DNA of 51,497 nucleotides, taken from a virus. Taxonomy: Duplodnaviria > Caudoviricetes. Location of the stretch: the IMG/VR virus record IMGVR_UViG_3300027887_000015, positions 1-51,497 of that record. One strand, 5' to 3'. A model generated the notes under the pieces. It worked only from the letters and a program-made list of their open reading frames with translations. It was not told the origin of the DNA and searched no databases. Positions 16,160 to 40,967 of this stretch are shown here, one piece after another (within the stretch, counting starts at the first letter, position 1; the number at the start of each line of letters is the position of its first letter). A program made the position numbers and the translations under genes.

Positions 16160-17101
16160 TTAGCCGATATTGTTGTACTTCACCACTGCGTCCTCTTCCT
16201 CGATCTCGCAAGCAACACGAGTCGTCAAGACGATGATGAACTCACGAGTACGGATATCCTTATCATACTCAATGGTAACCCTTCTCTGAATTCCAAAAAT
16301 GAGGTTGAGCGGATTGACAAACAGACCCTTGGCAGCGGGCATCATCGGTGCGCCAAGAACCTGCGAGCCCCATGCGTACAGCGGGCCGAGTCCCTGCAGC
16401 ATCGTATCGCCAAGACCCGTCGCACGATCCGAGTAGGTATCACGCATCTCGGTCTCGTTGTCCACCGAGAAAAAGTGAACCAGCTCGCCACGATTCCGGA
16501 GGTACTTATCCGGCATCGCTTTGACGGCATTCTTCAGCAGGGTCTTGCTGATCGTAGCACCACCAGCATCAACAACATGCGTAGTGACCAGTTTCATCCA
16601 GCCGTCAAGAAGAGCGAGGTAGGGGTCACCGGAAATCGAGTCGCCCAGAAGAACCAGCTCCTCCAGATCGAGAGCGGCACGCTCAGCAATCAGAGTAACG
16701 ATGGTGCTATGCAGACCACCGGCACCACCAGACTCTGACGAAGCATTGATGTTGCCGCGCTCGATATTATCCTCAAGCACTTCGTAGGGGATTCTGACTT
16801 CAGCCATCACCTCTTCAGTGTTGAGCACAACCTGCGACAGATCAGGCTTCGCACGATCACTCGGATCAAGTGCCGTAACAGAGACTGCCGGGCGCAAAAT
16901 TCGACTACCGAAGCCGATCTTATTGATCTTCCTCGTTGGCGAATTCATGGTGACGACACGAGCACTGTTGAGAACAGTGGGGCTGTCAATCAGAGTGCGG
17001 ATGAAACGATCAGTCTGCTCGGGGTTGAGAAGACCACCATCGGACACGAGATCGCTAAGAGCGATGTCTGCCTTTCGAACAAGTTCAGCATTGCTGCTCA
17101 T
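16160..17101 (-). CDS. Major capsid protein (HK97 fold, PBSX XkdG-like)
   Basis: GGLLNPEQ..RFI, LEDNIE, DLEEL.L.GD, P.NLIFGIQR motifs; N-terminal LVRK/ADI probable maturation site. Confidence 0.92.
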   Translation of the reverse strand: MSSNAELVRKADIALSDLVSDGGLLNPEQTDRFIRTLIDSPTVLNSARVVTMNSPTRKINKIGFGSRILRPAVSVTALDPSDRAKPDLSQVVLNTEEVMAEVRIPYEVLEDNIERGNINASSESGGAGGLHSTIVTLIAERAALDLEELVLLGDSISGDPYLALLDGWMKLVTTHVVDAGGATISKTLLKNAVKAMPDKYLRNRGELVHFFSVDNETEMRDTYSDRATGLGDTMLQGLGPLYAWGSQVLGAPMMPAAKGLFVNPLNLIFGIQRRVTIEYDKDIRTREFIIVLTTRVACEIEEEDAVVKYNNIG

Positions 17102-17121
17102 GTGAGTGAACCTCCGTACAG

Positions 17122-18189
17122 TTAACGAGAACGCATTTTCTGGCGAGGCAGAAAAGCCGTGTCGAACAGACCAGATCGCGGATCACTGTCCGCTTTCTTC
17201 GTCGCAGTGGTAGGCTTGTCTCCGGGAGGGATAGAACCAACCACCGTGCCTTTGACGACAGCCTGAGCCGATTTAGCCATTTCCTTCGCCTCAGCCATCG
17301 ACGCTTCCAGAGATTCACTCTTTTTGCTGATGTCTGAGACTTTGTTGCCGAGATCCTCGATGCTCTTCACCACCGACATAACCTGCTCGGTGACGGGAGC
17401 AATAAGCTTCTCCGCAATCTTTTGAATTGCCTCTAGCGGCAACTCAGCTTGAACAGGAGCCACAGGCTCAGTAACAGGGGTCTTCTCATCAACCTTGTCG
17501 TCGTCCTCTTCCTCCTTTGCAATGCCCTCGACAACCGAATACACGTTGTCAGCAGCATTGACTAGCGAGGCCGGAAGAGCGGAAGCATAGTCCTTGATGA
17601 GAGCACCAAACGCAGCCAGTGCCTGCTCAGCCTTTGCAACCTTTTCCTCTGTCGGGCATTTGCCACAGGAGAGAATCTCCATAGTGGAGTCAAACATGTG
17701 CCCGAAAGCCAGATCGATCCCAGGAAGATAGCCGTCTGCCTTAGTGACAAACGAGGTATTCTCCGTAGGAAAATCTTTGACTAGAGCCAGGAGGTGAGAA
17801 TTCATCCGGATGATATCAGCACCCTCGGTATCACCCTGCTTGAGGATGATGGTTCCATCTTCCTGCTCAGCAGCATCATCAACGGAGAAGCCATTGTCCT
17901 TGAGGATCTCCTGCACCTTGGCAAGAGCCTCGGTCTTCTCGACTACGATACCCACGATGGTCGGAACAACCTTCTGCTCAATCTCAGTCTCAGGCGAGAC
18001 TGCCTTTTCGACTTTCTCGTCGGGAGCAGATTCCCGCTTGAAAATTTTCTCCAGATTGATCATGGAATCAGTCTCCCGTGACTGTTTGATAATTCGGAAT
18101 GGAATCCTATTAGCCCCCCTCTCGACTAGAGAGATGTAGCTGACGGAAGGATTCTCCAGCTTTACCGACTTGAGTTTTACCTTTGCCAT
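17122..18189 (-). CDS. Capsid scaffolding protein
   Basis: Between protease and MCP; ISLVERGANRIPFRIIK start; acidic and coiled-coil; many hydrophobic-x-K motifs. Confidence 0.75.
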   Translation of the reverse strand: MAKVKLKSVKLENPSVSYISLVERGANRIPFRIIKQSRETDSMINLEKIFKRESAPDEKVEKAVSPETEIEQKVVPTIVGIVVEKTEALAKVQEILKDNGFSVDDAAEQEDGTIILKQGDTEGADIIRMNSHLLALVKDFPTENTSFVTKADGYLPGIDLAFGHMFDSTMEILSCGKCPTEEKVAKAEQALAAFGALIKDYASALPASLVNAADNVYSVVEGIAKEEEDDDKVDEKTPVTEPVAPVQAELPLEAIQKIAEKLIAPVTEQVMSVVKSIEDLGNKVSDISKKSESLEASMAEAKEMAKSAQAVVKGTVVGSIPPGDKPTTATKKADSDPRSGLFDTAFLPRQKMRSR

Positions 18190-18228
18190 GAACCTACGGT
18201 AGCAGCACCTAACAAACGGAACAAATGG

Positions 18229-18825
18229 TCAAACTTCTTGAGGGACCAGTAACTCTATGTGAGAAAAGCGATGGTTGTGCTCGGAAACTGTGTCTGTGAC
18301 CGTCCCCTTTTTGATGGTGTGCTTGTGACCCTTTGCTTCGTCAGTAACCCCACCAAGGAAGTTTCCGTCTGCGTCGTAGGAAACGTAGAAGCGATGTGAA
18401 TGCCCATCGTCCGCTTTAGACGTAAGTCCCTCTAGAACAGGGGGGATGTCAATCTCCACCTCAGAGTTGGTCTTGGTGACGAAGGCTTCGATGGACAGAC
18501 CGTTGATCTTGCCACTCTTGATGGCAGACCAAGTCTCATCATCTGGAACGTGAATGCCCACCACCCAAGAACCGGGGATGGGAAACGTGTCGTCTCCCTT
18601 GCGGGAGATGAAGGACTCGACTACAGACGCACCAGGAACCAGCTTGTTGGTGTGCTGAACATCGATCTGGGAAACCTTCTTGTCACGGAGAAACTTGTAA
18701 GCCATCTCCCTAATGGAAACGGCATCCATGTGTTCACCGTCTGAATCTGGGATTCCGGGCACATAAACTTCTGCCCAGACAATGCGTTGTTCTTCTGATT
18801 CTGCAGCGAGTTTTAGCTCAGGCAT
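18229..18825 (-). CDS. Prohead protease, XkdF-like serine protease with His-rich C-terminus
   Basis: VWAEVYVP..PDSDGE, IDVQH, VVESFI, GSWVVG, W..IKSGKINGLSIE motifs. Confidence 0.88.
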   Translation of the reverse strand: MPELKLAAESEEQRIVWAEVYVPGIPDSDGEHMDAVSIREMAYKFLRDKKVSQIDVQHTNKLVPGASVVESFISRKGDDTFPIPGSWVVGIHVPDDETWSAIKSGKINGLSIEAFVTKTNSEVEIDIPPVLEGLTSKADDGHSHRFYVSYDADGNFLGGVTDEAKGHKHTIKKGTVTDTVSEHNHRFSHIELLVPQEV

Positions 18826-18849
18826 AAGGTCACCTCATTTGAGGCAACC

Positions 18850-19056
18850 TTACGACCTCCTAACGTACAGTGCAGTAGCTTGCTCTTTTGTCAGCCCGAG
18901 AAACTCAACGGCATAGCGTATAGTGGCTGCTTGAATCTCTGACCCCTCCCAGTCGTAGGAGGAAAGAATTTCTTCGTGCAGGGGCTCGTCGTATTTGACA
19001 TCTCCCTGAATAAAGAGAGCCCCTGGCTCTGGCAGCTTAGGGGGTGACGTAGGCAT
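18850..19056 (-). CDS. Small partner protein overlapping the MuF-GNAT gene end
   Basis: 68 aa, mildly acidic, overlaps the last 20 nt of the upstream gene. Confidence 0.6.
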   Translation of the reverse strand: MPTSPPKLPEPGALFIQGDVKYDEPLHEEILSSYDWEGSEIQAATIRYAVEFLGLTKEQATALYVRRS

Positions 19057-20308
19057 TGAATCGTGCCATGGCTAGTGGGTTAGAAAAATCCAGCACTCCA
19101 TCCCAATGAACACCCCGCAAAATTCTTGCCCCCCACTGTGGTATGTCCGAGATAGCCCACAGGGCTAACTGATCACCTTGCCTCAGGCGAGCTAGGGCGG
19201 CTGTGGCTACCTGCTTCACATCCGCCGGAAGCCCGAGACCCTCATTGATGCGCCAAGCTATCGTGTTGAAGAAGCTACCCCAGACCTCAGAAGTGATCTT
19301 AAGATCACTCGGTAGCCATCCGTACCTTGCCCAAGCATAGGCACCGATATCGATGTCCGCATTGAGCGTAATCTTCGTCACCCCCAACGACTTGGCAAAG
19401 TCCACCAAGGTGCTGATGACTTGCTTGCCAACACCCTTACCCTGTGCCGACGCAGGCAGACCTATGCCAGCAAGGTACAAGCTGCTGTCTGCTTTCAGGA
19501 GGAAGATCAGATCAGAAGATTCTTCCAGGCCAAACATTCTCCCGTTAAACCAGAACCCAAGATTCCCATCCATGCCTGAGCGCAGACCAAAATGGTATTT
19601 GCGGCTCCACTCCTCTAGATCTTGCTGAATCTCCCTGAACGAGACACCGGTCAACAGCTCTACCACCTCACGAGGATCACGCTTAACAAGCTTGTTCCAG
19701 GCATCTACAACCTTAGCCTCGGAAAATGTCTCGGGAAATGCTGCCTTGATGTCAGCGTCAGTGAAATTAGTGGACAAAGGCAACGGGAACGCTGCCTGCC
19801 ACGAAGCCGTCTGCTCAATGGTCGGGACCTTGTCCTCCGGGACCAGGATGCCTCGACAGTACGGATGATAGGGGGGGATGTGCCAGTTGCTGCGAATGAT
19901 ATCAATATCATCCATGTCCGCCAGGGCATCGAGAGAGGCTTTGTCCTTCTTCGGCCAGGGCTGCAAACTTCTTAGGTCGTCCGGATTGTCAGTGGCTAAG
20001 ATGATATCGAGTGCTTTACTGGCATCGGAGACAAAGAACACCTTGCCATGCATGATTTTGCAGACCGGGCAGATCTTGGTGTCGAGTTGCTCGCTCACTG
20101 CGTACCTCTGCACATCAGTGGCGTTAGCTTCCAGCGTGAAGCCATAGGCCGACACCCGAGAGGTGTGCAGACCTGAAATCATTTGCAAAAGCTTGTCGCC
20201 TTCCTTCCGGAAGCTCACGAACTCCTGAGCTAGGTTGAGCTTGGTCTCTGCCTTACGGATAGGAGACTTGGTCAAACACTCTGCGAGTTCAAGAGTCAGA
20301 TCAGCCAC
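19037..20308 (-). CDS. MuF (SPP1 gp7-like) head protein, C-terminal part, fused to a GNAT acetyltransferase domain
   Basis: LD.KICPVC..MHGKVF and PPYHPYCRG MuF motifs; QGKGVG acetyl-CoA motif and GAYAWARYGW; GTG start at 20308 after GGAGG. Confidence 0.85.
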   Translation of the reverse strand: MADLTLELAECLTKSPIRKAETKLNLAQEFVSFRKEGDKLLQMISGLHTSRVSAYGFTLEANATDVQRYAVSEQLDTKICPVCKIMHGKVFFVSDASKALDIILATDNPDDLRSLQPWPKKDKASLDALADMDDIDIIRSNWHIPPYHPYCRGILVPEDKVPTIEQTASWQAAFPLPLSTNFTDADIKAAFPETFSEAKVVDAWNKLVKRDPREVVELLTGVSFREIQQDLEEWSRKYHFGLRSGMDGNLGFWFNGRMFGLEESSDLIFLLKADSSLYLAGIGLPASAQGKGVGKQVISTLVDFAKSLGVTKITLNADIDIGAYAWARYGWLPSDLKITSEVWGSFFNTIAWRINEGLGLPADVKQVATAALARLRQGDQLALWAISDIPQWGARILRGVHWDGVLDFSNPLAMARFNAYVTP

Positions 20309-21482
20309 GATCCCTCCAAGCCTTAGTCTCTGGGTCGAAGGTAGCCACCGGCTCAACAGTCACAATCGTCACCTCTATAGGACCGCGCAAAGCATTCCAA
20401 CGATAAGTCTCCTTCCTGACACCTACCACCCGGAACCTTCCAGCAGTAATAGCTTCGTTGTACACGTAACCAGACTCTTTTGCCTCACTAGCCTTGTTCT
20501 TGCTGTACGCTACTATCGGAGTACCTTTGACAAACTCCAATACCGTTGGCAATCCTTCTTGATCCGATTCCTCACTACGAATTCCATACGAGGCAGAGTT
20601 ACCACCTTCTCCTGAAGTTGCTAGCAAAGGAACATCAAAAGTGTCCCCTATCTTCCAATCGATTTGCCGTATATTTTCAAACCCATGGTACAAAAGCTCT
20701 TCAGATCCAACCGTATCAGAGTGGATAGCAGAGAGCATCTCCTTAGCCACTGACGCTAAACCAGGATCGAACATACCACCAGATAGTCTGTACCCTGAGT
20801 ACCCAGGTATCGCCATCATGTCCGCAGCAGCGGTGGCTATGGTTCTGCTGTAGCTATGGGAATACCCCCAGGAATCTGAATACTTATGCCGAAAGATCTT
20901 ATGGCTAGAAGTATCTGGCGGTTTATAACCGGGAGGGCTGTAGTAACTGCTGACAAACAACTTCGGACCAGAGGTAGAACAGAACTGCCCTCCCTTAGGT
21001 GAACCGGTAGGCTCATGGCAAGGATTGCTCTTTTTAATCTCTAGCTTGCCATTAGACGGAGAGAGCGGCGTAGTGTCCTCGTAGAGCGAGTGCTTGGAGA
21101 TCAAGTCCAGGAGGCTGCGCCGGAGATCAGCCTCTAGCTGGTTGGTGACGTAGTTCTTGAGCAGAACAGTGGTGCGCTCGATGTGCTGATCCAGGTCCTG
21201 CTTGTTAAGGTCCGTCTTCTTCGGACTACCATTGGTTAAACGGGACGCACCAAAAAGTAAGGCAGCGGTGGTGTAGTACCTGACCGCTGCCTTGTTGTCG
21301 TCTACGATCTGATCTAGAGAGAGCCGATTGGCTAAGCGGGTCGCGGTTCCATAGTCGGAGTGGAATAGGGCTTTGCGTACTGCGCCCTCAGTCTCAACAA
21401 ATATCCTGTTCCAGGATTTCTGCAGGTTCTCGTACAGGGACTTCTCGATAGCCAAGAAGGCTTCGGCATTTACCATGGTCAC
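20301..21482 (-). CDS. Helical (probable MuF N-terminal) region + tag + ADP-ribosyltransferase-like domain
   Basis: Helical first ~145 aa; IKKSNPCHEPTGSPKGGQFC tag; LLYHG...LLATS...YNEAI.GRFRV ART-like motifs. Confidence 0.65.
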   Translation of the reverse strand: MTMVNAEAFLAIEKSLYENLQKSWNRIFVETEGAVRKALFHSDYGTATRLANRLSLDQIVDDNKAAVRYYTTAALLFGASRLTNGSPKKTDLNKQDLDQHIERTTVLLKNYVTNQLEADLRRSLLDLISKHSLYEDTTPLSPSNGKLEIKKSNPCHEPTGSPKGGQFCSTSGPKLFVSSYYSPPGYKPPDTSSHKIFRHKYSDSWGYSHSYSRTIATAAADMMAIPGYSGYRLSGGMFDPGLASVAKEMLSAIHSDTVGSEELLYHGFENIRQIDWKIGDTFDVPLLATSGEGGNSASYGIRSEESDQEGLPTVLEFVKGTPIVAYSKNKASEAKESGYVYNEAITAGRFRVVGVRKETYRWNALRGPIEVTIVTVEPVATFDPETKAWRDRG

Positions 21483-22789
21483 GCATCGAACTTGATCACT
21501 TTCTTCAGCTTAACAGCTTTTCCAGTGTGTGTTCGCCATTCCGACATAGAGTGCATCTGCACACCCTTTGCTCCAGGTACTGGCTCAAACTCCAACAGGC
21601 TTATCTGCTTCGGGTCTAGCCTAGCGAAGGCTTCAGTATCGTTGAAGATGAAGAGAGGATCTGTGGGTCCTCCGGCTGCTTCACGAAACCACAGCCACTG
21701 CTTCATAAACTCCATGCGATTGGAGAGCATTTCTTTCGGAGAGAGCTTTCTCTCGTAGGTAGCAGCCCAGCCTTCACCTTCATACCCAGGCAAATAACCT
21801 GTGCGCTTCCAGCCCTTGTCTGTCTCCAGGCTAGGGTCCTCGAAAATATCAGCCTGCTTAGTGCGTATCCCAGTACGCAATTCCTGCATCAACGCGGTGT
21901 CTCGGTCTGAGCCATCATGGATACCACCGTATTCCCGGATGTCCCTTATCCACCCCTTATCGGCCCCTACTCCACGAGTAGCTTGATCTAGGAGAGCATC
22001 CACATCAATCCGGCCATTCAAGAATGCGTGAGTGAGACGCATAGCATTGCGAATCTCCAACGCTACCTTGGGATCATCAGTGAAGGACACCGTAGTATCG
22101 TCCCCTCCACCAAGACCCAAACCACTTTGCTGCGAAAGCTCGTCACGAGACTTCAGCCCTTCCTCGACCACCTTATCTCTTGCTGTAGTAACGTGATACA
22201 GCGTGGCAGGGAGGTCCTTGTATCCATCAGGATTGCCAGAGTCTGAGCCTCTCCAACCAAGTTTCTCTGCTTCAGCAGCAGGAAGAGTGCCTAGCGATAC
22301 CGCTTCACCTATCTCACGATTCCATTGCCGTACCAGCTTCTTCTCTTCCTGGTACAGCCCCTCATTCATCTTGCCATCGGCACCAACCCAGTTGATTTCT
22401 GGCTTCTTGCCAAAACGACCAGCAGAGCAAAACTGACCTCCCTTACCACTACCCGCAGGTTCGTGGCAAGGGTTTCCTGAGCCCTTACGAGTACGAGACA
22501 GCCTACGCCCTTGCAAAGGAAAAAAATCAGTAGTCAAGCCCCCTGAATCAACATGTTGCTTTGGAATAAGGTCGAAAAAATTACGGTTCTTTCTAGGAGC
22601 TACAACCCTGCTCTTAAGAGGAGGGTCTATAGAATACTGTGGTTCACTGGTGGGCTCTATTTCATCATAGTATGAGTCCAAGCTATCCAACAAAAGATTA
22701 CGTCTACCGCGAATTTTTGACGCAAAAGTAAACCTCCCCTTAGCATCATGGTAGGGGTTGTATTTGAGGATGGTGAAGTATTCAATCAT
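21479..22789 (-). CDS. Doubly tagged protein with C-terminal ART-like domain
   Basis: ILKYNPYHDAKGRF and TRKGSGNPCHEPAGSGKGGQFC; LYHVT...GLKS...VSFT...SEWR. Confidence 0.6.
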   Translation of the reverse strand: MIEYFTILKYNPYHDAKGRFTFASKIRGRRNLLLDSLDSYYDEIEPTSEPQYSIDPPLKSRVVAPRKNRNFFDLIPKQHVDSGGLTTDFFPLQGRRLSRTRKGSGNPCHEPAGSGKGGQFCSAGRFGKKPEINWVGADGKMNEGLYQEEKKLVRQWNREIGEAVSLGTLPAAEAEKLGWRGSDSGNPDGYKDLPATLYHVTTARDKVVEEGLKSRDELSQQSGLGLGGGDDTTVSFTDDPKVALEIRNAMRLTHAFLNGRIDVDALLDQATRGVGADKGWIRDIREYGGIHDGSDRDTALMQELRTGIRTKQADIFEDPSLETDKGWKRTGYLPGYEGEGWAATYERKLSPKEMLSNRMEFMKQWLWFREAAGGPTDPLFIFNDTEAFARLDPKQISLLEFEPVPGAKGVQMHSMSEWRTHTGKAVKLKKVIKFDA

Positions 22790-23184
22790 CCTTCTTTGCC
22801 TTTACCTTTTGCTGACGCTTTCCTCTTGTCGTATTTGTCCATCAACTCCTTGGCTTTCATAAAGTAAGCATAGGTGTTGTCGAAGGTGTCCTTACGAGGA
22901 CCTAGTGCAGCAGATGCCCGTCTACGAATTTTAGCTCTAAGGTAGTCCTCTTTGTTTGGACCGTGCAATCGATCTAAAACCTCGTCAATCTCCCCCTGCA
23001 TACGTACTTGTCTAGCTTTCTTGTTTTCTGGCTTAGCATCTGCAGCAGAGTCTGTCTCTCCTGGTCCGTGTTTACCACTAGAACAAAACTGCCCACCATC
23101 TGGGCTACCTTTAGGAGCGTGACAAGGGTTTCCCTGGGCCTTCTCTACCTGGAACAAAATACCGGCACGGTGAAAGATGCTCAT
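22786..23184 (-). CDS. Small tagged basic helical protein
   Basis: VEKAQGNPCHAPKGSPDGGQFC followed by ~95 basic residues; coupled on both sides. Confidence 0.7.
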   Translation of the reverse strand: MSIFHRAGILFQVEKAQGNPCHAPKGSPDGGQFCSSGKHGPGETDSAADAKPENKKARQVRMQGEIDEVLDRLHGPNKEDYLRAKIRRRASAALGPRKDTFDNTYAYFMKAKELMDKYDKRKASAKGKGKEG

Positions 23185-23450
23185 TAGTCAAAATCCTCTG
23201 AGTTGACAAGCCCAGGTCCTAGGTAGTCCTCACAGGTCTTGTGAAAGTCACACCAAGTGATATTAGGATCACTGGTATCAGCCGCTGATCGATGCTGAGG
23301 ACAATCCCACTGCTCACACTCAGCACTGCAAAAAGTATCGTGGATCATTTCTTGCGCTTCTTCCAACAGTCCCAACAAACTATGCCACTGCTTAGAAGGA
23401 AAAAAACTCCTACTATGGCAAACGTCACCATCCCCCAGATTTCTAGCCAA
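23184..23450 (-). CDS. Small Cys-rich hypothetical protein (start may be the internal MIHDTFC)
   Basis: DTFC...C...C..H...C..H..C; stop overlaps the next ATG. Confidence 0.5.
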   Translation of the reverse strand: MARNLGDGDVCHSRSFFPSKQWHSLLGLLEEAQEMIHDTFCSAECEQWDCPQHRSAADTSDPNITWCDFHKTCEDYLGPGLVNSEDFD

Positions 23451-23501
23451 TAGATTTGGGCATCGATAGCAGCGTGTTGCATGTAAGCAAAATACAACCT
23501 C

Positions 23502-23714
23502 CTAACCCCTCGGATTAGAGGGTCCTACCCACTCATCATTGACAATCCAGCCTTTTTCAACAGCCGCCTTGTAAACCGGAAGGTGACGGAAGGTATCCAA
23601 ATCAGTAACAACTGACATGAAGGCCGGAGATTTGTAGGGTGGGAGATCCCAGGTCCTCTTGGTCCAATCTGCGTTATCCAAGTCAGCATCGATGTTATAC
23701 GCTTTACGAGCCAT
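23502..23714 (-). CDS. Small partner protein downstream of the JAB-ART polyprotein
   Basis: GAGGTG RBS; 70 aa, NADWTKRTWDLPPYKS...FRHLPVYKAAV. Confidence 0.75.
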   Translation of the reverse strand: MARKAYNIDADLDNADWTKRTWDLPPYKSPAFMSVVTDLDTFRHLPVYKAAVEKGWIVNDEWVGPSNPRG

Positions 23715-23722
23715 GACGCACC

Positions 23723-26518
23723 TCAGAAGGGTATGTCCTTATCTAAAGGAGATGTATATCTACCAGGATTCTCTTCAAGCATTCTTTTACGTGCTGCTTT
23801 TACCTCTGCTGTTACTGCTTCAGCAGTTGTCTCATAAGACCCATCCAATATGGCATTGTAGGCAATGAGGGCAGGCTGCGCTTCACGAGCAGTCTGATAG
23901 TTATCCCCTGTCATACCATACTGAGGATTCTCATCAAACTCTTTTCCAGCAATCGTTGCCTGTACCCGCTGCTCCTGCCTGTATTTATCTGCTGTCTCGG
24001 GTAGAGTAGCCGCTGTAATGCTCATTATCGGGTCCCCTCTACCACCATTAGCAGTCGTTGGTACAAGGGATATGTACTTGGCTTTCTGTACTCCTCCAAG
24101 TACCACAAACTCATCCTCTCCTTTGCACCCAAATCCCGTCTCACATGTAGACAATATTTTAGAGGCTGGAACCTTGATCATAAATACGGACCCAGTTTTG
24201 TTGTACTTTGAGTACTGGCTATGGGATGTCTCCGCTACAAATCCTTGGGCAGAATCAGCGGAGTAAGCAAAAGAAGACATAGGCTGAAGTTGAAACTCTG
24301 TCTCTCCCACAGAGACAGTATAGCTGGTAGACATCACAGGAAGATTACGATCATCAGTCCCAGGCACAGAGAAGGTAATCGACTTCTGTGCCTTTCCATA
24401 TTCTGACTGCGGAAGATTAACCCCCCTAAATAAGATCAGCTCTTTGATCCCAGCCTCGGCAAGAAGCTCCTGGGTCAGATCGTACTGAGCCCTAAGAAAC
24501 TTGCGGTAAAAAGTCTCTTTGGAAGTACCTTTACCATACAGAGCCCAGGCTTCATTGTATTGATAGTCATCCGGAGTATTTGAATGTAGATGACCCATAT
24601 CTGCCAGATCAAGACCAAACTCATCCTTTGCTGCTAGCTGCAGAACTATAGACCTGGCATCGTGGTCCCCAGAAGTATTTGCCCACCTATGAATTAACTC
24701 TCTTACCTCGTCGTACATCTTTTCATGTAGGTATTTTTCCTTCTCCTCTGCATACAAGTCTGGGTCTAGATTACTTAGTACCTCCTCCAACTTTCCTGTA
24801 GAGGAAAGCAAAGTAACCATATCCATCTTATCAAACACTGCTGGGTTGTCTGCGCTTACAGGACCTAAACGATTGGCTACCTCTTCTGTGTCTAGAGCAA
24901 GCATTTCTCTGTGGTTTACAATGTGCCCCTCAGGAAACACTTTATCTAACGCTTCCTTCATCTCCAACAAAGAAAGCCGTGAGGACAGCTTCATTAAAGC
25001 AGTAAAAGAAGTAAAGCCCTTATCCCCAAGATACCCTTCAAACGCTGTCATGGCTTCTGGGTCATTCAATAACTTGTTAGCCACCCTGGCTTGAACACGT
25101 ATCTTAGACTTTGCACCGGAGGCATCGTCATCATTTTTACCCCACCGAGTACCAAATAGCTTCTGTAGCTTCTTCAGGTCCTCTTGAGATCTTTGTATAT
25201 CGTTTTCCGATATCTTGCCTTCACTAGCCATCCCACACACAGACAGGGGGGCAAACTTTCCGCTCTTCGGATCGTGGCAAGGGTTTCCCTCTCCTTTAAG
25301 AATGGAGAGGAACTTTGTCACCTTGTCCTGCTTCTTCTTGAGGGCTTTGGTTAGCCTCTTACCCCACTTGTTAAATATGACAATCTCTCGATACAGCTTA
25401 GCCATATCTCTTTGCGCTAGGGGTACTTTGTTGAGGATGACCCCAGACTTGATGTAGGTCCTGGCTACCGAATCATCTATTAGCGGAAGGATGTACTTGT
25501 GCTCATCAGATATGACACTAGCAAACCCCTTTTGATTGGTGAGCACCCCCTGTATTTCCTTACGCAGAGACTCAAAACTCTGACCATCCTCTTCAAGGAT
25601 TTCATTTGCCCTTCTGAGATGATCACCTTCCTTGTGAATGGTAAAAGACTTGATGAAGCCAAAATCAGCTAGCACCTGGAGGGCTAAGGTACGCTCCATA
25701 GCCTGATAGGCTTTCTCACAATCAAACTGAGTGGCACACTTCTTAGAACCAACATGCCCCTGTGAAACACCCTCCAACATAGGAGCTTTGTACCGCAGGG
25801 TGTAATATGCAGCCCCCATAGCGGCATTGAATACTCCCTTCATCCAAATGAACGCTTCACTAGCATCTGAACTGTAGGCACCTAAATAAGCAGGATCGTG
25901 ATCCACCATGCCGTACCAGCCATCCGGCATAGTGACTCCCATCAACCCACCATCAGCACTGCAGGCGAGCATCTCTTTCGCCCCCCACAGTCCTGCTACT
26001 AAACAATCTCCTACCGACAACCCTGCTAGTTGATTGGGGTGGTTGTGAAGAACCACCCTTCCCTCAAGGTTTGCCAATTGCTCAGCAACCATAGGAACAT
26101 GATGTGCAGAGCCCTCTATAAACAGATCGTCAGCCGTACCATCCTTGGTTGCGAAGAGAGCTTCTGTAGTTTGCTTGCCAGCATTTTCGAGGTCAGCTTC
26201 ACGCTGTATCAGGCTCGACATCTTCTCCACGAGCCAGTCTTTTATCTCCAGCGAATGCTTAGGCCCGGCTGACCCCAAATTGCACACCTCTGAGGGCGCA
26301 AATTGCCCGCCCTTGCCTTCAGGAGCCCCGGCAGGGTGGTGGCAAGGGTTACCACTGGAATCGGCCTTAAAAGCCTTATTTGGGGTGAGAAACACTACAT
26401 CACCATCAGCAAAGATGACTTTGGCAAGCTCGTAATCCTGGTCGCTACACGGAGTGAAATCCCGCTTCATGTAGACTACGGTTGCGTCTCTACCGCTGAC
26501 AGTGGTGTTAACGATCAT
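23723..26518 (-). CDS. Polyprotein: ~50 aa leader + tag + JAB/MPN domain + tag + R-S-E ADP-ribosyltransferase
   Basis: E...HNHPNQLAGLSVGD (JAMM-like); LFRGV...QPMSSF...EDEFVVL (ART); two tags. Confidence 0.78.
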   Translation of the reverse strand: MIVNTTVSGRDATVVYMKRDFTPCSDQDYELAKVIFADGDVVFLTPNKAFKADSSGNPCHHPAGAPEGKGGQFAPSEVCNLGSAGPKHSLEIKDWLVEKMSSLIQREADLENAGKQTTEALFATKDGTADDLFIEGSAHHVPMVAEQLANLEGRVVLHNHPNQLAGLSVGDCLVAGLWGAKEMLACSADGGLMGVTMPDGWYGMVDHDPAYLGAYSSDASEAFIWMKGVFNAAMGAAYYTLRYKAPMLEGVSQGHVGSKKCATQFDCEKAYQAMERTLALQVLADFGFIKSFTIHKEGDHLRRANEILEEDGQSFESLRKEIQGVLTNQKGFASVISDEHKYILPLIDDSVARTYIKSGVILNKVPLAQRDMAKLYREIVIFNKWGKRLTKALKKKQDKVTKFLSILKGEGNPCHDPKSGKFAPLSVCGMASEGKISENDIQRSQEDLKKLQKLFGTRWGKNDDDASGAKSKIRVQARVANKLLNDPEAMTAFEGYLGDKGFTSFTALMKLSSRLSLLEMKEALDKVFPEGHIVNHREMLALDTEEVANRLGPVSADNPAVFDKMDMVTLLSSTGKLEEVLSNLDPDLYAEEKEKYLHEKMYDEVRELIHRWANTSGDHDARSIVLQLAAKDEFGLDLADMGHLHSNTPDDYQYNEAWALYGKGTSKETFYRKFLRAQYDLTQELLAEAGIKELILFRGVNLPQSEYGKAQKSITFSVPGTDDRNLPVMSTSYTVSVGETEFQLQPMSSFAYSADSAQGFVAETSHSQYSKYNKTGSVFMIKVPASKILSTCETGFGCKGEDEFVVLGGVQKAKYISLVPTTANGGRGDPIMSITAATLPETADKYRQEQRVQATIAGKEFDENPQYGMTGDNYQTAREAQPALIAYNAILDGSYETTAEAVTAEVKAARKRMLEENPGRYTSPLDKDIPF

Positions 26519-27501
26519 TGTTTGTGTGCTTCGTAGTAGGCTATCTGCCCAGCCAAATAGGCTTCCCGTATTGACTTATCCATCCATGAGCTTTTTACAA
26601 ACTTGAATAGGTCTGTCCACGAGGACCTTTCTGGAGTAGAAAGCCTAGATCTTCGAGCGGCATACTCTGCAAGAGTCTCCGTTACAGGAGAAAGAAAATC
26701 GATGTAAGTAGTGGTTTTACGAGATACGTAATCGTTATAGGCTTGCCACCACTTACTACTGTAAGCAGTAATCCCATCCTCTTTTTTCAGCCTGTCAAAC
26801 TTCGCAAACATGAAATTGTGAAAATTGTAGAGGTGTGAGTACTTGTCTTTGTACTTCTTATCCATCTTGGGCCATTTGCCGGTCTTGTAATCCATCATAG
26901 GATTTGCCCTTACCGGCATAGGCTCCCCTCTCCTCCTCCCTCCTTCATGCTCCCAATCGCTCCACGCACTTTGGTAGTCGTCCATGGCTTTTCGTTCTTC
27001 TCTTTCAAACGCCTCAAAAGTTGCACGAAACATATGATGCATTATTTCGTGGGATACAATGGAATTTACATCGCTAATGAGATTTTGCTCTGCGTTAATC
27101 CTGCGCCACTGATCACCAGAGGAATACTCTGACATAAAATCCTTAACCGTAATGGGTAAGTAAATGTCTATCTCCCCCTTTCTAGGAGTGTCATGGGTAT
27201 ACGCAACACCAGCAGCATCATGCGTCTCCCCATTAAGATCAAAGGTATACCCCTTATCAGTTACATGGATCAACTCTAGAGGGTATCCCAGCGTAGAGGC
27301 TACAGACTCAACTTGCTTAATAAGCAGCCTCTCAAGGGGGTGTAATTCCCTGTTTGAGTCCTGAAGATCAAGATGTATTTTGTCTCCCAAAGAATGAGCT
27401 ATGTCATGCCTAGACATTCCACAAGATGCCAAAGGAGCAAACTTGCCCGTCTTAGGATCGTGACAGGGGTTCCCCTCTCCTTTGAGAATGGCGGCAAACA
27501 T
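26515..27501 (-). CDS. Tagged zincin metallopeptidase
   Basis: ILKGEGNPCHDPKTGKF; HEIMH (HExxH) and downstream ETLAE. Confidence 0.78.
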   Translation of the reverse strand: MFAAILKGEGNPCHDPKTGKFAPLASCGMSRHDIAHSLGDKIHLDLQDSNRELHPLERLLIKQVESVASTLGYPLELIHVTDKGYTFDLNGETHDAAGVAYTHDTPRKGEIDIYLPITVKDFMSEYSSGDQWRRINAEQNLISDVNSIVSHEIMHHMFRATFEAFEREERKAMDDYQSAWSDWEHEGGRRRGEPMPVRANPMMDYKTGKWPKMDKKYKDKYSHLYNFHNFMFAKFDRLKKEDGITAYSSKWWQAYNDYVSRKTTTYIDFLSPVTETLAEYAARRSRLSTPERSSWTDLFKFVKSSWMDKSIREAYLAGQIAYYEAHKQ

Positions 27502-27680
27502 TAGGGGCCTATCTTGGTATCAGGGTTCAACATGTCCTTAGCGTCTTCCAGAGCCATCAACACCTCTGGATTAGCTGGCATGTCCTCAAGCTGACGAATC
27601 CAAGCTTCGATCTCTCCCTTTGAAGAGTACCTGGAGATAGGCGGATCGATCAGGTAGTAGCTATTGTTTTGCGGTTTCAT
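27501..27680 (-). CDS. Small acidic partner protein (59 aa, below ORF-track cutoff)
   Basis: GGAG RBS; MKPQNNSYYLIDPPISRYSSKGEIEAWIRQLEDMPANPEVLMALEDAKDMLNPDTKIGP*; TAATG coupling to the next gene. Confidence 0.7.
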   Translation of the reverse strand: MKPQNNSYYLIDPPISRYSSKGEIEAWIRQLEDMPANPEVLMALEDAKDMLNPDTKIGP

Positions 27681-27683
27681 ACA

Positions 27684-29897
27684 TCACTCCATGAAATCGA
27701 AGATCTTGCTGTTACGAATAGCTTCCTTAACCTCAGGGTCGGGATAGTACTTGATGGCATTCTTCACTCGTTTGACCATCGTATCCCTCAAGAGGTTAGC
27801 CATAGAACTTTCGTGCCGTCCATTGAGGTAGCCAAGCACATCTGGACCCAGCTTATACTCAAGCTTGATGAGCCCCAGCTTGTCCAGTGCCTGCACCATG
27901 AGGAGATTATGCGTGTACTGAGCTTCTGTAATTGATATGTCTCCTAGCATGATGGAGGCACTTAGCAGTTGGTACATGCCCTGATCCAACATCCTGTGTG
28001 TCTCTTTCAAAACCCCAGGAAGCTTGCGAGCATTCTCATTGATCGTAGCCCGATAGAACGAACCATCTGCACCCACGGCTTCCACTGCCCGCAGGTTTTG
28101 CGTAGTGGCAAACATGATGTCCTGGATTGACAACGCTGACCGGCTAGGATGGTTGTGGACCATCACCCAGGAGTTGTTGTCGGCTGCAGAGCCCTGAGAC
28201 ATCCGGGCCAAATCTTCCTCTGAGAATTCAATCTCAGTCGGAGATCCGGAGGTGCGCTGTATGACGCTCTTACCATTCCCGTCAATCAAGACCCCGTGCT
28301 CGTTACCATCCTCTTCCCCTAAGAACGACACCGCTTTCCTCGCTGCCTCGATGCCCGCCTCCTGCTTCTTGAGGACCTTGTTGAACTTTTTTGCAGTTCT
28401 TCCTCCCTTCAGAGGTAGTTTCAACTGCCTGGGCTCACCGAGTGAGCCACCCCCCTTCTTGCCACCACTGCAAAACTGCCCACCACCAGGACCAGCCGGG
28501 TTGTGGCACTCGTTACCCTTGAAGATCTCTTCGAACCGGCGGATAAGCTCTCGTACCCGAACCTCCAGCAGCGTCTTTCTTCCATCACTGATATCGAGGT
28601 GCTTGTCCTTGATGAAGTCGTCAGCAGACTTGCCATACGTCTCTGCCAACTTCGCAAACTGCTTTTGCCCAAGATCGAGGACCTTAGCTAACTCTTCATT
28701 GGCATTAGTACGAGTCACGTTAACGACTAGATGATCCTGTTGCCAAGACACCCCATCGTATTTCGTACCCACCATGCCTAACGTAAACTTAGGCAGCAGA
28801 CCGGACACCTCGGGCACTGCCTCCTTCAGCCGTGCCTTCACGGAATCAGTCAGATCTTTCTGGGCATCGATGTTGGCAATCATCCGCTTCTGCGCTTCGC
28901 TAACAGAGATCTTCTGCTGCGCCAGATCCACCAGCACCTTGGTATTGGACCCGACGTACCGGATCAACGGAGGCATCTTCTCCTTGTGGAAGAGAGCCAA
29001 GTTGTCAGAGGTGCTAAACGCTGAAAGCTCTGCCTCGGTTTCCCAGTTGATGCCAGTGACATCGTGAGAGTAAATGACCTGTGATGCTAATTGCACGAAG
29101 TCACGGCTGAAGTACTTCTCCATCATCGGAGCAACGTGTTCCTGGAAATACTGGGCCGACCAACGAGGATGGTCGGCATCAAGAAAGGCACGAGACGGAG
29201 GAGTCAGATACCCTGCGTCATGGTAGACCGCAGCAAGATTCATCAAGGCTTGATTAAGCGGGGTGTTGTGAGCCCCCGGCAAAACAGCAAGGATATCCCT
29301 GCTCATCTGAGCATCACCATACAGATGATGAATGCCGTGATCCCCTAAGGTCCTACCCTGAGACTCTATGTCCTGAGCCAACAAATGATCCGTGGCATCC
29401 ATCGAGATCTCACGAACACCCTCTTCAGAAACTCCGGCTGCCTTCAGGGAATCTTGCAGAGACTGCATCATGGTGCGAGCCAACTGACGCGCCTCCTCAG
29501 GAATCAACTCCACAGCAGAATCGATACGCTTGGAGATATCAGCCGCCAGATCCTTGGTATACGGTCTTTCCCCCAAACTGGCTAGCAGCTCATCCATGCG
29601 AGCCTTAACCGTGACACGAGGGTTGCCGTAAGCATCCTTTTCTTCACGAGACAGGCTCTTCCACTTCGCCCGCGACTCCATGAAAGGCTGCGCTTTCCAC
29701 TTAGCCGCATCAAAATCCGAAGGACTGGCAAACTCTTTACCGGGGGCTTCCCGAAGCTTCTTGCCTTCGGTCCCGTCTCCTCGGTAATGCGTAGCCTTGG
29801 GCTTTGATCCCGCCCCAGGCTTCTCGCAGAATTGCCCACCATCAGGCTTGCCCTTAGGCTGGTGACAGTCGTTGCCTTTGAGAATCTTGGCTAGCAT
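27684..29897 (-). CDS. Polyprotein: tag + HD-domain phosphohydrolase + tag + JAB/MPN domain
   Basis: Start at 29897 after GAGGTG; DHGIHH...YHDAGY...DH...SHD...SDN (HD); NEHG...HNHPSRSALSIQD (JAMM). Confidence 0.8.
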   Translation of the reverse strand: MLAKILKGNDCHQPKGKPDGGQFCEKPGAGSKPKATHYRGDGTEGKKLREAPGKEFASPSDFDAAKWKAQPFMESRAKWKSLSREEKDAYGNPRVTVKARMDELLASLGERPYTKDLAADISKRIDSAVELIPEEARQLARTMMQSLQDSLKAAGVSEEGVREISMDATDHLLAQDIESQGRTLGDHGIHHLYGDAQMSRDILAVLPGAHNTPLNQALMNLAAVYHDAGYLTPPSRAFLDADHPRWSAQYFQEHVAPMMEKYFSRDFVQLASQVIYSHDVTGINWETEAELSAFSTSDNLALFHKEKMPPLIRYVGSNTKVLVDLAQQKISVSEAQKRMIANIDAQKDLTDSVKARLKEAVPEVSGLLPKFTLGMVGTKYDGVSWQQDHLVVNVTRTNANEELAKVLDLGQKQFAKLAETYGKSADDFIKDKHLDISDGRKTLLEVRVRELIRRFEEIFKGNECHNPAGPGGGQFCSGGKKGGGSLGEPRQLKLPLKGGRTAKKFNKVLKKQEAGIEAARKAVSFLGEEDGNEHGVLIDGNGKSVIQRTSGSPTEIEFSEEDLARMSQGSAADNNSWVMVHNHPSRSALSIQDIMFATTQNLRAVEAVGADGSFYRATINENARKLPGVLKETHRMLDQGMYQLLSASIMLGDISITEAQYTHNLLMVQALDKLGLIKLEYKLGPDVLGYLNGRHESSMANLLRDTMVKRVKNAIKYYPDPEVKEAIRNSKIFDFME

Positions 29898-29905
29898 GGA
29901 GCACC

Positions 29906-31693
29906 TCAATGCATATGATCGGCACAGCAACCAGCAAGCTCGTTAGTCCCATCGAGCTTCTTGGCAACGAACGTCTTGACCGACAACATGTTGTCAAACA
30001 CGCGCCGATAAGTCACAGGCAGTGCATCCACCCGAGACAGCACCAACAGCCGCTCAGGGTCAGACATCGCACCATCCTCAAGACCCACGGCAACAGACCA
30101 CTTGAGTACTAGGTCGGCTATGTCCTCGGGGTGAACCTCCTGCTTCCCTACCGTCTGCCGACGATCAGGCTCCTGCTTCACCGGCTCAACATCATTGCGG
30201 ACGTTGTTCTTGCCCGTAGGAAGAGAACCCTCGGTGCCCATGAAGTTCTGGCTCTTGCCCGCCGGAGCAGCCATCTCCGCGTTCTTCTTCTCAGCCTCTT
30301 CAGAGTAGAGAAGATGCAGCGAAGCGATTTCATTGAGAGCCTTGATGAAGTCCTCACCAGAGATCTTCGGCATTCCTAGCTCCAGTGCCTTCATCTGGAT
30401 ATCCACATTACGCAGATTCACTGGGTTGGAGACATACAGATACTTCTTAGCCCCCAGCTCCGGGAGCAGCTTCTTGTTGATAATCTCGTCAAACTCCACC
30501 CGCTCCGGAGTAAACACCTGAGCCTCGGCAACCATGTAACTGGTCATTGCCGTGGCGAAGTTCATGTCGGAGGCTTTGCCCAGGAACAGGGTGGGAAGCC
30601 TAAACGCTACTCGGACATGGTCCTCGCAGTTCTGGTCATACCCCTGAAACATGCTGTCCTGGGACCGGAAGTCACCAAAGCGTTCCGTGGAAACCTTGAC
30701 CGAACCCGCTGAATCCAGCGTGCCTCCTGAGGCTTGCACCTCGACCACCGCAATACGATTCTTGGATTTCGCAGAGCCAGAAAAGAACGTCTGCAACTGA
30801 TCTCGTACATCCTCAGTCAACAGACCACCCTGCACGAAGACCACTGCCGGAGGAACACCACCGGAGTCGAAGAACTCCAGGTTGAATTCTTCTCCCTTGC
30901 GTGATCCCAGGATGCTAGGTAGCTGGTTGATCCAGCGAGGCAGACCATAGGCAGTGGTAGTGTCAGCGATGCAAGTGAAGTGCAATACCTCGCTAGCCAT
31001 ATCAGTCATTGCTAGCTTGCCCTCTGCCCATCTACCAGTCTCACGATTGAGGTCACGAGAGCAACCGAATTCTTTGAAGAAGATTGTCTTCGTGCCGACC
31101 TTCTGCGCGAATCTACGCTCGCGTGCCATGTAAGTGGCAGTGACGTTCTCTCCGAAGCGAACGATGGTCTTCTCTACCGACACAGGGTCATCGAGCATCA
31201 CCAGTCGCATTGACAGACCATCGAGATGACGCAACAGGAGTATCTTGCCCTCAGGATTTCTCATCACCTCCAGATAAGCGTTGCCAATCGTCTCCAGGTC
31301 ATACCGGAGCTTGCGGCGGATAGAGAGGAAGGACTCACCAGGGAAGGGCTCGTTGAAGAAAGCCTCAAGCCGCTTCTTCTCTTCCAGGTCATCTCCGCTC
31401 TGAGGGTCAGCCAAGGTGAGGGTGTACCCCGTGCCATCGATGTTGGTCTCCATGGCAAGGACACACTGCAGCAGGATATTGTTACGTTTGACTAACGCAG
31501 AGAGTGTAGACAGCGTGAAAGGCGGGGCAACAATTGCACTGCCGGGATTGAGGACCCCTTCTCCGTAGGTAGGCAGGAACTCGTCCTCTGCCTCCAGCAC
31601 CACGTTGACCACCAAGGTCTTGGTGTCTGCCTTGAGGACCTTCTTTGAAAGCGTAACATGGCTACGCGGAGGAATGATGTTGGTCTCTGGCAT
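29906..31693 (-). CDS. Portal protein (PBSX family)
   Basis: DLETIGNAYLEVMRN, YGLPRWI, N.EFFDSGGVP, AFRLP.LFLG...NFATA motifs. Confidence 0.92.
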   Translation of the reverse strand: MPETNIIPPRSHVTLSKKVLKADTKTLVVNVVLEAEDEFLPTYGEGVLNPGSAIVAPPFTLSTLSALVKRNNILLQCVLAMETNIDGTGYTLTLADPQSGDDLEEKKRLEAFFNEPFPGESFLSIRRKLRYDLETIGNAYLEVMRNPEGKILLLRHLDGLSMRLVMLDDPVSVEKTIVRFGENVTATYMARERRFAQKVGTKTIFFKEFGCSRDLNRETGRWAEGKLAMTDMASEVLHFTCIADTTTAYGLPRWINQLPSILGSRKGEEFNLEFFDSGGVPPAVVFVQGGLLTEDVRDQLQTFFSGSAKSKNRIAVVEVQASGGTLDSAGSVKVSTERFGDFRSQDSMFQGYDQNCEDHVRVAFRLPTLFLGKASDMNFATAMTSYMVAEAQVFTPERVEFDEIINKKLLPELGAKKYLYVSNPVNLRNVDIQMKALELGMPKISGEDFIKALNEIASLHLLYSEEAEKKNAEMAAPAGKSQNFMGTEGSLPTGKNNVRNDVEPVKQEPDRRQTVGKQEVHPEDIADLVLKWSVAVGLEDGAMSDPERLLVLSRVDALPVTYRRVFDNMLSVKTFVAKKLDGTNELAGCCADHMH

Positions 31694-35596: not shown

Positions 35597-35626
35597 ATAG
35601 TAATAGTAGTTTGAGGTGCTTGTCAA
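35597..35626 (-). promoter_or_regulatory. Sigma70-like promoter
   Basis: TTGACA-N18-TACTAT at a gene boundary. Confidence 0.65.
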
Positions 35627-36312
35627 TCCCACGGTGGCATTCTGTCCCCCCAGACATGATCAACACCCAAGGGAGCTACTACATCGTCTCTCCCGTTGTC
35701 GAAGGTGTAGCCATAGCCGGAGTAGGAGCTGTTGTAAGTCGAAGCGTAACCCATCACCAGTGGCTTGGAAGAAGCCACCTTCTTGACACCAAAATGCTTG
35801 TTCAGGAATTTGACTTGGCTATCCGACTCCACCGACTTGACGCAGTAGTGCTCACGCACGTAACTGATGGCATCCACCTCGCCCAGCATCACCTTGACCA
35901 GGGCAGCGAATAACGTACCGGTACGACCATGCCCACCAATGCAGCCTGCGTGGACCTTGGACCCGGCTACAATTTGCTCAGCCAGATAGTCGATCAGCTT
36001 CGTAAAGCTCGCAACATCTTTGGGAGCAGAGTGATCGGTGATGGGATACAGCAGAGCAAACCCAGGCTCCCATGGGTATGCTTTCTCGATGTAGGTCATC
36101 GAGTGGTCCAAGCCAACATAGATGTCTGCGTCTTTAACCACAGGACTGTGGCAGGAGCCACCATGCACCACCAAGTCTCCAGTCAACTTGAGCGGCGGAT
36201 GAGACAGGTAGCAAGGGGTATACGCCTTGCTATCCTTCTCTAACTCAAACGGCATGGAGGTCTGCCCATTCAGAATCTGTCTGGACATTCTCCGCTCAGA
36301 TGCCTTCTTCAT
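35623..36312 (-). CDS. Protein-tyrosine/dual-specificity (CX5R) phosphatase
   Basis: YPITDHSAP acid loop, HAGCIGGHGRTG P-loop, VES.SQ. Confidence 0.88.
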   Translation of the reverse strand: MKKASERRMSRQILNGQTSMPFELEKDSKAYTPCYLSHPPLKLTGDLVVHGGSCHSPVVKDADIYVGLDHSMTYIEKAYPWEPGFALLYPITDHSAPKDVASFTKLIDYLAEQIVAGSKVHAGCIGGHGRTGTLFAALVKVMLGEVDAISYVREHYCVKSVESDSQVKFLNKHFGVKKVASSKPLVMGYASTYNSSYSGYGYTFDNGRDDVVAPLGVDHVWGDRMPPWD

Positions 36313-37334: not shown

Positions 37335-37361
37335 TGCTCCCTCCTCGGAGACTCAACCAGG

Positions 37362-37391
37362 ATACTACTGGAGAGGTGTAGAGTTTGTCAA
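37362..37391 (-). promoter_or_regulatory. Sigma70-like promoter
   Basis: TTGACA-N18-TAGTAT in an intergenic gap. Confidence 0.65.
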
Positions 37392-37870
37392 GTCATTTGA
37401 CGTACTCGGGCGAGAATCTTTGCCCACCATACAGCCCACCGAAGTGAGGTTACATCAAACGATCTAAGATACTCCGCCTGCTCATATGTCTCCACGGCAT
37501 GGGACATGTAATGCTGCCGCACCCATAACAAAGGGGTCTGCCATCTCCTCTCCTCCTTACCCACCAATGCTTTGTAGAGCAAAGCGAGAAAAAGACCGGT
37601 CCTACCGATACCGCCTCGACAACCCACATGCACTACATTACCCAGTGCCATTTGATAGATCACACCGCGCAAAATCTCCAGAACCAACTCATCATTATCT
37701 GGAACTGAGAAGTCTGGAATAGGCAGATGCCACGTACAATTTTGCCTGTTGGTCTCAGTCAGATTGACACAGGGGACCTTAACATTACGGGCATCTAAAG
37801 GCCCAGCATTGATATGAAACCCCTTCACCGGAAAGGTCACTATCTTAGTCTGTGATCCATAGTAATTCAT
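37388..37870 (-). CDS. Second CX5R phosphatase
   Basis: LPIPDFSVP, HVGCRGGIGRTG, AVETYEQ; ATGA-coupled start at 37870. Confidence 0.88.
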   Translation of the reverse strand: MNYYGSQTKIVTFPVKGFHINAGPLDARNVKVPCVNLTETNRQNCTWHLPIPDFSVPDNDELVLEILRGVIYQMALGNVVHVGCRGGIGRTGLFLALLYKALVGKEERRWQTPLLWVRQHYMSHAVETYEQAEYLRSFDVTSLRWAVWWAKILARVRQMT

Positions 37871-40965: not shown

Positions 40966-40967
40966 GG

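Follow-up and report, generated by a model that had tools for sequence, protein, structure and literature searches.

In phage HK97, the capsid protein is cut between K103 and S104 (PMC10275583), and this site, which reads F-N-K/S, fits a pattern of hydrophobic-x-Lys before a small residue. In phage T4, one propeptide, the capsid-targeting sequence (CTS), holds both the targeting signal and the site at which gp21 cuts it (PMC9026906; PMC7411985). Ejection proteins of SPN3US and other phiKZ-like phages are cut by gp245 at A-x-E (PMC7411985). Polyvalent proteins, multi-domain proteins encoded in head operons and presumed to be packaged and injected, were proposed by Iyer et al. (2017) to be processed by zincin-type peptidases (PMC5512222). 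Here, we consider a 51.5-kb IMG/VR virus fragment (IMGVR_UViG_3300027887_000015; completeness ~53%) in which eleven copies of a short conserved peptide, N-[PDE]-[CYN]-H...G-[GKR]-[QKR]-F, called the tag below, mark modules of putative cargo proteins. Judging from the sequence, the hydrophobic-x-Lys motif before these eleven tags is likely to be the cut site of an XkdF-type prohead protease, which would release the tagged modules inside the prohead. The window is the whole stretch analyzed (positions 1 to 51,497), and all genes discussed lie on its minus strand.

The packaging of very large polyvalent proteins and their passage through a narrow portal and tail form an open question, for which the published proposal is self-processing by a zincin. 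This locus and its relatives suggest a concrete alternative, in which the head protease would cut at a specific motif, a scaffold-like leader would do the loading, and a conserved tag would be the label. If this is true, the module boundaries of hundreds of phage effectors could be read from sequence, the specificities of XkdF- and DUF2213-type proteases could be predicted, and siphovirus capsids could be loaded with proteins in the manner of T4.

The head module comprises, in order, the portal, a block of multi-module open reading frames (ORFs), two halves of MuF, the XkdF-type protease, the scaffold and an XkdG-like major capsid protein (MCP). With HK97 gp4, the protease shares the His/Ser catalytic pair, profile similarity and a site like F-N-K/S. 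Several features differ from HK97: the protease belongs to the XkdF type (PF14550) and is without the last strand, a separate gene encodes the scaffold, the MCP propeptide has 10 amino acids (aa), and non-structural cargo is present. The MCP of phage 0105phi7-2, 46% identical to that of the window, reads I-E-K11-A-D and is found in virions without residues 1-10 (PMC10219371). That phage likewise has an XkdF protease and a scaffold region rich in [ILV]xK (21 vs. 9.2 expected), but protease, completing strand and scaffold form one chain, and the 12.9 kb fetched contain no tags. In the acidic halovirus phiH1, the Lys residues of the XkdF protein are concentrated, by eye, in x-E-K-[SAT] repeats.

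The likeness to T4 IPI-III and Alt lies in a short N-terminal propeptide ending in hydrophobic-x-P1 and common to head proteins, in an ADP-ribosyltransferase (ART) among the cargo and in a protease of the same fold (P1 is the residue before the cut, P1′ the one after it). Unlike in T4, P1 is Lys rather than Glu, the head is HK97/PBSX-type and siphovirus-like, the cargo polyproteins have internal sites, a conserved tag follows the site (none is described in T4 proteins), and the protease is predicted to be split over two genes. The system would work like T4 CTS/gp21 but is not a member of it, since protease, head type and P1 differ; an XkdF protease and an XkdG-like MCP stand in place of the Glu-specific gp21 and the gp22/gp23 core. 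As is proposed for the window, the head protease of SPN3US processes internal ejection proteins, but these are giant myoviruses with Glu specificity, and the available part of PMC7411985 describes no common tag. With polyvalent proteins, the window shares multi-domain head-operon proteins, zincin-, ART-, GNAT-, JAB/RadC- and HD-like domains, and MuF fusions. Disparate enzymatic domains in one chain among head genes are found in the ORFs starting at 27684, 23723, 21479, 20301 and 19037, several of the domain calls being weak. The polyvalent scheme places the zincin, as processor, in the same chain, whereas the zincin-like HExxH module of the window is a separate tagged ORF. The available part of PMC5512222 names neither a prohead-protease site nor the tag; its supplements may hold the tag in a domain alignment.

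Residues preceding the tags

All 11 tags reported by the initial annotation were located, and its tally of the preceding residues (ILK five times, IFK twice, and AFK, VEK, TRK and IKK) is exact. Its statement that hydrophobic-x-Lys stands before every tag holds for the Lys, present at all 11, but not for TRK, which is not hydrophobic at P3; two tags, one after ILK (44367) and one after IFK (42783), lie outside 16160-31693, the other nine inside. I, L or V occupies P3 in 9 of the 11 sites. Between Lys and tag there are 1-8 linker residues (spacings of 1, 3, 5 and 8 in the window). An [ILV]xK ends at most five residues before the tag in 8 of the 10 in-frame tags (nominal binomial p 3e-8, which overstates independence, the tags being paralogous copies). 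In 24 related IMG/VR loci, Lys stands two residues before the Asn in 46 of 46 distinct tags, 42 of them with [ILV]xK (background 0.015 per position).

P1 and P3 are constant at the pre-tag sites while P4, P5 and the linker vary. This constancy, together with the variable spacing in the window and a P1 residue that is retuned to each phage's protease type (see below), speaks against the site being a passenger, copied from a head protein along with the tag and now without function. Such an origin, which would fit the homology of the tags and their presence inside protease-scaffold and MuF proteins, is in our view most improbable.

The tags of the window often carry two Cys and a His. No relevant match was found for 27 tag stretches in Pfam and none for 14 in NCBIfam, where short peptides are easily missed. 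A description of the tag was not found in the open-access literature (most subscription papers lie outside this coverage), and tags were not seen in the head regions of the cultured relatives DLP5, 0105phi7-2, RcZahn, L338C and SIO-2, inspected in part.

The motif in head proteins

The initial annotation had also seen the pattern in the MCP (VRK/AD), the portal (VLK/AD), MuF (IEK/S, LTK/S and IRK/A) and at eight scaffold sites. All of these are present, but IEK/S of MuF was rejected as a cut site, Lys being found there in 2 of 9 distinct homologs. The motif [ILV]xK[ASG] occurs 16 times in six head proteins, compared with 7.7 in shuffles (p 0.004). It is not enriched elsewhere, with 13 against 11.9 in cargo ORFs, 13 against 13.5 in the tail and 12 against 12.6 in other genes; head proteins alone stand out in the comparison that the initial annotation had suggested. 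Neither the Arg nor the Glu version shows enrichment in head proteins ([ILV]xE[ASG] 7 vs. 8.6). Among 86 distinct relatives, the MCP site is [ILV]xK/A in 55 and another Lys site in 3, the remainder being almost all Arg. The scaffold site after residue 35 is kept in relatives (K35 is nearly invariant), and so is the site at the start of the MuF C-half (Table 1).

In scaffolds, the residue after Lys is mostly small (A 107, S 106, G 44). This dominance argues for a cut after the Lys, as do HK97, where the cut falls after K103, and the T4-type and SPN3US proteases, which cut C-terminal to their motifs. A cut at the same motifs but before the Lys (x-x/K), or in another register, is very unlikely, although K11 is kept on a few MCP peptides of 0105phi7-2 (PMC10219371), which allows a cut before Lys.

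Covariation with the head protease

IMG/VR was scanned with tag patterns blind to the upstream residues, which yielded 157 N-P-[NY]-H-D-x-x-G-R-F and 100 H-P-R-D-x-x-G-[RK]-F-T variants. Lys precedes 115 of the 157, and most exceptions are consistent within a contig. The protease families were compared over the 44 distinct loci that bear tags and whose fetched DNA includes a protease gene. With an XkdF protease, Lys stands before the tag in 14 of 14 loci. With a DUF2213 protease, it does so in none of 16 (several of which are near-copies); D or E directly precedes the tag in 13, and Asp lies within three residues in the other 3. In the 14 loci with an HK97-type S78 protease, Lys occurs in 6, Arg in 4 and other residues in 4, and the protease's own terminal site agrees, by eye, with the tag residue (Lys in 5 of 5 readable cases, Arg in 4 of 4).

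Processing of the polyproteins by a phage zincin module or a host protease, before packaging or after ejection, would agree with the zincin-like HExxH module among the cargo (26515-27501) and with the proposal of such peptidases by Iyer et al. (PMC5512222). It gives no reason, however, why MCP, portal and scaffold should all carry this motif, or why the motif should change along with the family of the head protease, and it seems hardly probable.

In one clade of MCP relatives, Arg replaces Lys not only at the MCP site but also throughout the scaffold, at its homologous site as well as in its body, and at the N-termini of portal and protease. When 80 loci are scored for the MCP site and for these two scaffold features, 47 are K/K/K and 23 R/R/R. 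In the scaffolds of the Lys clade (53), [ILV]xK[ASG] is 3.35-fold over shuffles and the Arg motif 1.49-fold; in those of the Arg clade (27), [ILV]xR[ASG] is 4.70-fold over shuffles and the Lys motif 1.00. In tail proteins of the Lys clade, [ILV]xK[ASG] stays at 1.06-fold. A concerted switch from Lys to Arg, such as these alignments suggest, is a prediction of changed enzyme specificity. The covariation and 0105phi7-2 together argue for a Lys specificity of the XkdF-type protease.

In the Arg clade (L034, L038, L042, L045, L077-L082, L087-L117, L128), MuF and tags are mostly absent between portal and protease. In seven other loci (L145, L148, L154, L160, L182, L189, L214), the XkdF domain is itself a module inside tagged polyproteins. 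Tags occur in 4 of 20 MuF-bearing loci and in 0 of 32 others, a comparison confounded by clade and made with a MuF profile that missed the annotated MuF-like gene of 0105phi7-2. MuF as receptor of the tag is a possible lead.

Points against cleavage at the tags

Several observations weigh against a cut at these junctions. TRK and AFK fit the motif poorly. P1′ at the tags of relatives is mostly F or Y (36 of 46), but mostly A, S or G in the scaffold. The counts of tags are not independent, as these are homologous copies. IEK/S of the MuF N-half is not conserved. The Lys-to-Arg switch has a single origin on the tree, and the Arg clade carries no tags in the fetched flanks, and five complete genomes gave only chance matches to one H-D-x-x-G-R-F pattern. 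Two loci outside that clade (L056 and L085) have Arg at the MCP site only. The IMG/VR locus L200, which has an S78 protease, carries nine tags, five of them preceded by His, three by Leu and one by Phe, which hints at an unusual specificity. The 0105phi7-2 data were obtained with trypsin (PMC10219371). A cultured tag carrier was not found by tblastn with a 48-aa tagged stretch or by blastn with a 3-kb tagged region over 50,697 phage records, short peptides being below the sensitivity of such searches. Lastly, 52 [ILV]xK are present in the cargo ORFs of the window, and the motif is no rarer than expected in cargo bodies (133 vs. 119, ratio 1.12); thus the motif alone does not define cuts, and folding must protect the cargo bodies.

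Cleavage at the tag junctions by the XkdF-like protease, as first proposed, is well supported by the enrichment, the Lys-to-Arg switch, the tracking of protease families, the HK97 site and the 0105phi7-2 MCP, but the motif alone is insufficient, and it is only probable that the cut falls after the Lys. The proposal that the products would be single-domain units, each with the tag, is not supported in that form: the GNAT domain of the MuF C-half follows LLK/AD untagged, and tagged units span 92-523 aa, some with more than one region. The tags do follow the Lys closely, but with 1-8 linker residues they would not always be at the new N-terminus itself.

A protease predicted to be completed by the scaffold

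The catalytic His58 (18652-18654) and Ser111 (18493-18495) of the protease are invariant in 43 homologs. Its model (predicted local distance difference test, pLDDT, 82) has T4 gp21 as best structural neighbor (Z 7.9 to 5JBL, root-mean-square deviation 4.0, 111 aligned), followed by herpesvirus proteases, among them that of varicella-zoster virus (Z 5.9); a Foldseek search with the model gave no match. PF04586 (Peptidase S78) does not match the protease, and the whole domain is not found in one chain. The XkdF profile spans positions 5-115 only of the S78 profile, and the last strand of the HK97-type fold, E-V-S-L-V, is absent from the protease. This strand is predicted to be supplied by the first 36 residues of the scaffold. 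In the modeled complex, scaffold residues 16-22 are flanked by protease strands 53-56 and 110-113. The complex scores 0.73 and the best control 0.01, with at least 82% of contacts common to the runs and a partner pLDDT of at least 66. Among solved pairs, 116 of 157 attain this mark, and among mismatched ones, 2 of 215; halves of a split fold can pass it by likeness. The same strand is N-terminal in gp5 of 0105phi7-2 and in line in phiH1.

The protease would then be a two-part enzyme, and the strand borne by the scaffold would confine its activity to the prohead core. A tie of activity to the scaffold, if true, strengthens the step from cutting to cutting inside the prohead, which is the probable place. 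A solved structure of a close MCP with known mature N-terminus was not found, the nearest being T5, and cleavage positions were not found in the published accounts of phiH1, ChaoS9, BF23 and ArV2.

The C-terminal domain of the protease (18229-18460) has three invariant HxH pairs and a weak YmaF match, and probably binds metal.

Leaders and the proposed loading and release of cargo

The pre-tag sites extend beyond the scaffold consensus. P6 is aromatic in 26 of 51, against 10 of 370 other scaffold sites, and P2 is L or F in 31 of 51, against 47 of 370 (the copies being related). Five cargo ORFs start with leaders of 7-15 aa ending in xxK. Inside the scaffold gene, a putative second start at Met43 (Table 1) is preceded by a Shine-Dalgarno-like sequence in 39 of 40 homologs, compared with 48 of 321 other internal Met. 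The short scaffold form would begin M-INLEKIFK and would thereby look like the leaders of the cargo, which read M-FAAILK, M-LAKILK and M-IEYFTILK. Since the leader resembles the short scaffold start, loading may be signaled by the leader helix and not by the tag; by analogy with the T4 CTS, the helix may be removed at the Lys, the tag acting later.

The longer consensus at the pre-tag sites, with its P6 and P2 preferences, and the often bulky F or Y at P1′ could also mean that the motif does no more than end a helix which mimics the scaffold and binds to the core of the prohead, the cargo being loaded and left uncut, much as the N4 virion RNA polymerase is packaged unprocessed (PMC5512222). 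But the residue that precedes the tag changes with the family of the protease and agrees with the terminal site of the protease itself, internal tags within polyproteins also have the site, and in T4 targeting and cutting share one propeptide; uncut cargo is unlikely.

With cleavage as the preferred reading, the amphipathic helix that precedes the site (aromatic P6, I or V at P3, L or F at P2) would bring cargo into the core, like the short scaffold start. Only sites in exposed linkers would be cut. The tag would stay at or near the new N-terminus for a later step, either retention on MuF, portal or DNA, or ejection, and the freed ART-, JAB-, HD-, zincin-, GP88- and topoisomerase-like modules would enter the host with the DNA.

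A broader scheme is offered tentatively and is rather doubtful as a whole. Phages of the HK97 lineage would share a portable cargo code in three parts. A leader helix that mimics the scaffold would load the protein into the prohead core, and after it would come a cut site adapted to the protease of each phage (Lys, Arg or Asp). The third part, a universal tag (N-P-x-H-D-x-x-G-R-F or H-P-R-D-x-x-G-R-F), would be exposed at the new N-terminus and guide the freed enzyme out by way of the portal. The protease would be on only when the long scaffold form lends its last strand.

Gene map and cargo modules

The coordinates are collected in Table 1. Pfam cutoffs are passed by topoisomerase IB, GP88 and GNAT; the HD, zincin and ART-like calls rest on sub-threshold matches, homologs and motifs seen by eye. 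The second module of 27684-29897 is one that we take to be JAB-like, by eye, from the motif HNHP..S..D.

Table 1. Head and cargo features of the window, with sites and tags
Feature	Positions	Strand	Match or remark
MCP (PBSX XkdG/SIO-2/DLP5-like)	16160-17101	-	phrog_1623 7e-99
Putative MCP propeptide end VRK/AD	17072-17080	-	10-aa propeptide
Scaffold protein	17122-18189	-	17 of 36 Lys lie in [ILV]xK
Internal ribosome-binding site and Met43 (18061-18063), putative short scaffold start	18037-18075	-	
Scaffold residues 1-36, predicted completing strand, ending IIK/Q (18085-18093)	18082-18189	-	S78 profile 125-144, E 0.006 (weak)
XkdF-type prohead protease	18229-18825	-	PF14550 3.9e-21, 75.8 bits vs. 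cutoff 24
MuF C-half, LLK/AD (19493-19501), untagged GNAT domain	19037-20308	-	PF04233 E 0.0035; PF00583 E 1.8e-5
MuF C-half sites LTK/S and IRK/A	20267-20275; 20252-20260	-	Lys site at this junction in 27 of 29 homologs
MuF N-half (~150 aa), IKK, tag (21026), ART-like module	20301-21482	-	N-half matches N-termini of one-piece MuF of relatives; ART by eye only
Polyprotein: leader MIEYFTILK, tag (22759); TRK, tag (22474), possible ART-like module	21479-22789	-	Atlas Arr-type ART score 0.81, lead only
Small ORF: leader ending VEK, tag (23130), 100-aa module	22786-23184	-	Module without family match
Polyprotein: 51-aa leader, AFK, tag (26350), JAB-like; ILK, tag (25285), ART-like	23723-26518	-	DRAT E 0.14
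Leader MFAAILK, tag (27471), zincin-like HExxH module	26515-27501	-	DUF5700 E 0.028; flagellinolysin HExxH E 0.067
Polyprotein: leader M..ILK, tag 1 (29873), HD-like; IFK, tag 2 (28514), JAB/RadC-like	27684-29897	-	HD Pfam E 0.041 (weak); phrog_10691 E 2e-4
Portal protein	29906-31693	-	PF04860 8.8e-11; phrog_12
Portal N-terminal site VLK/AD	31631-31639	-	Lys site in same stretch in 10 of 18 close homologs
65-aa leader ORF ending IFK, A9 run (42794-42802), then -1 frame tag (42783) and topoisomerase IB	41845-42998	-	PF01028 3.5e-27
Second cargo cluster: leader ending ILK, tag (44367), GP88-like module	42877-44397	-	PF17338 3e-6
Tag IKK-S-NPCH	21026	-	
Tag TRK-GSG-NPCH	22474	-	
Tag ILK-Y-NPYH	22759	-	
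Tag VEK-AQG-NPCH	23130	-	
Tag ILK-GEG-NPCH	25285	-	
Tag AFK-ADSSG-NPCH	26350	-	
Tag ILK-GEG-NPCH	27471	-	
Tag IFK-G-NECH	28514	-	
Tag ILK-G-NDCH	29873	-	
Tag IFK..NPCH	42783	-	Outside 16160-31693; joined to IFK only via a -1 shift on nine A (42794-42802)
Tag ILK-E-NPNH	44367	-	Outside 16160-31693

MuF fusions are of two kinds, MuF-N with the ART-like module and MuF-C with GNAT; nine other tagged modules are not fused to MuF. MuF is split into two genes (19037-21482) at the conserved Lys site that joins the halves in relatives, with cargo fused to each half. The ART-like module of 23723-26518 has 17 homologs, 3 with PF07357 and 5 fused directly to MuF PF04233. Two homologs of the ART-like module (P0011 and P0019) have a leader ending in I-L-[IV]-K/A, followed by a different conserved peptide.

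Before topoisomerase IB, the tag is in the -1 frame relative to the leader. The same A9 run is present in four Logan assemblies (possibly the source of this DNA), and because they share it, the run is taken as genomic; an assembly error behind the frameshift is unsupported. Candidate explanations are a programmed shift or polymerase slippage, or else a lesion.

The sequence of the window is present in soil and wetland metagenome runs, and no RNA runs are listed for it. The closest cultured MCPs are those of Stenotrophomonas phages DLP3/DLP5 (64%), followed by those of Vibrio SIO-2-like phages and RcZahn (50-55%). Small ORFs directly after cargo genes (27501-27683, 23502-23714 and 18850-19056) have no Pfam match, and their position suggests immunity-like partners. 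Two tyrosine-phosphatase-like genes lie upstream of the portal together with a PPDK-like gene and DNA polymerase A (35623-41037), and RcZahn has the same order.

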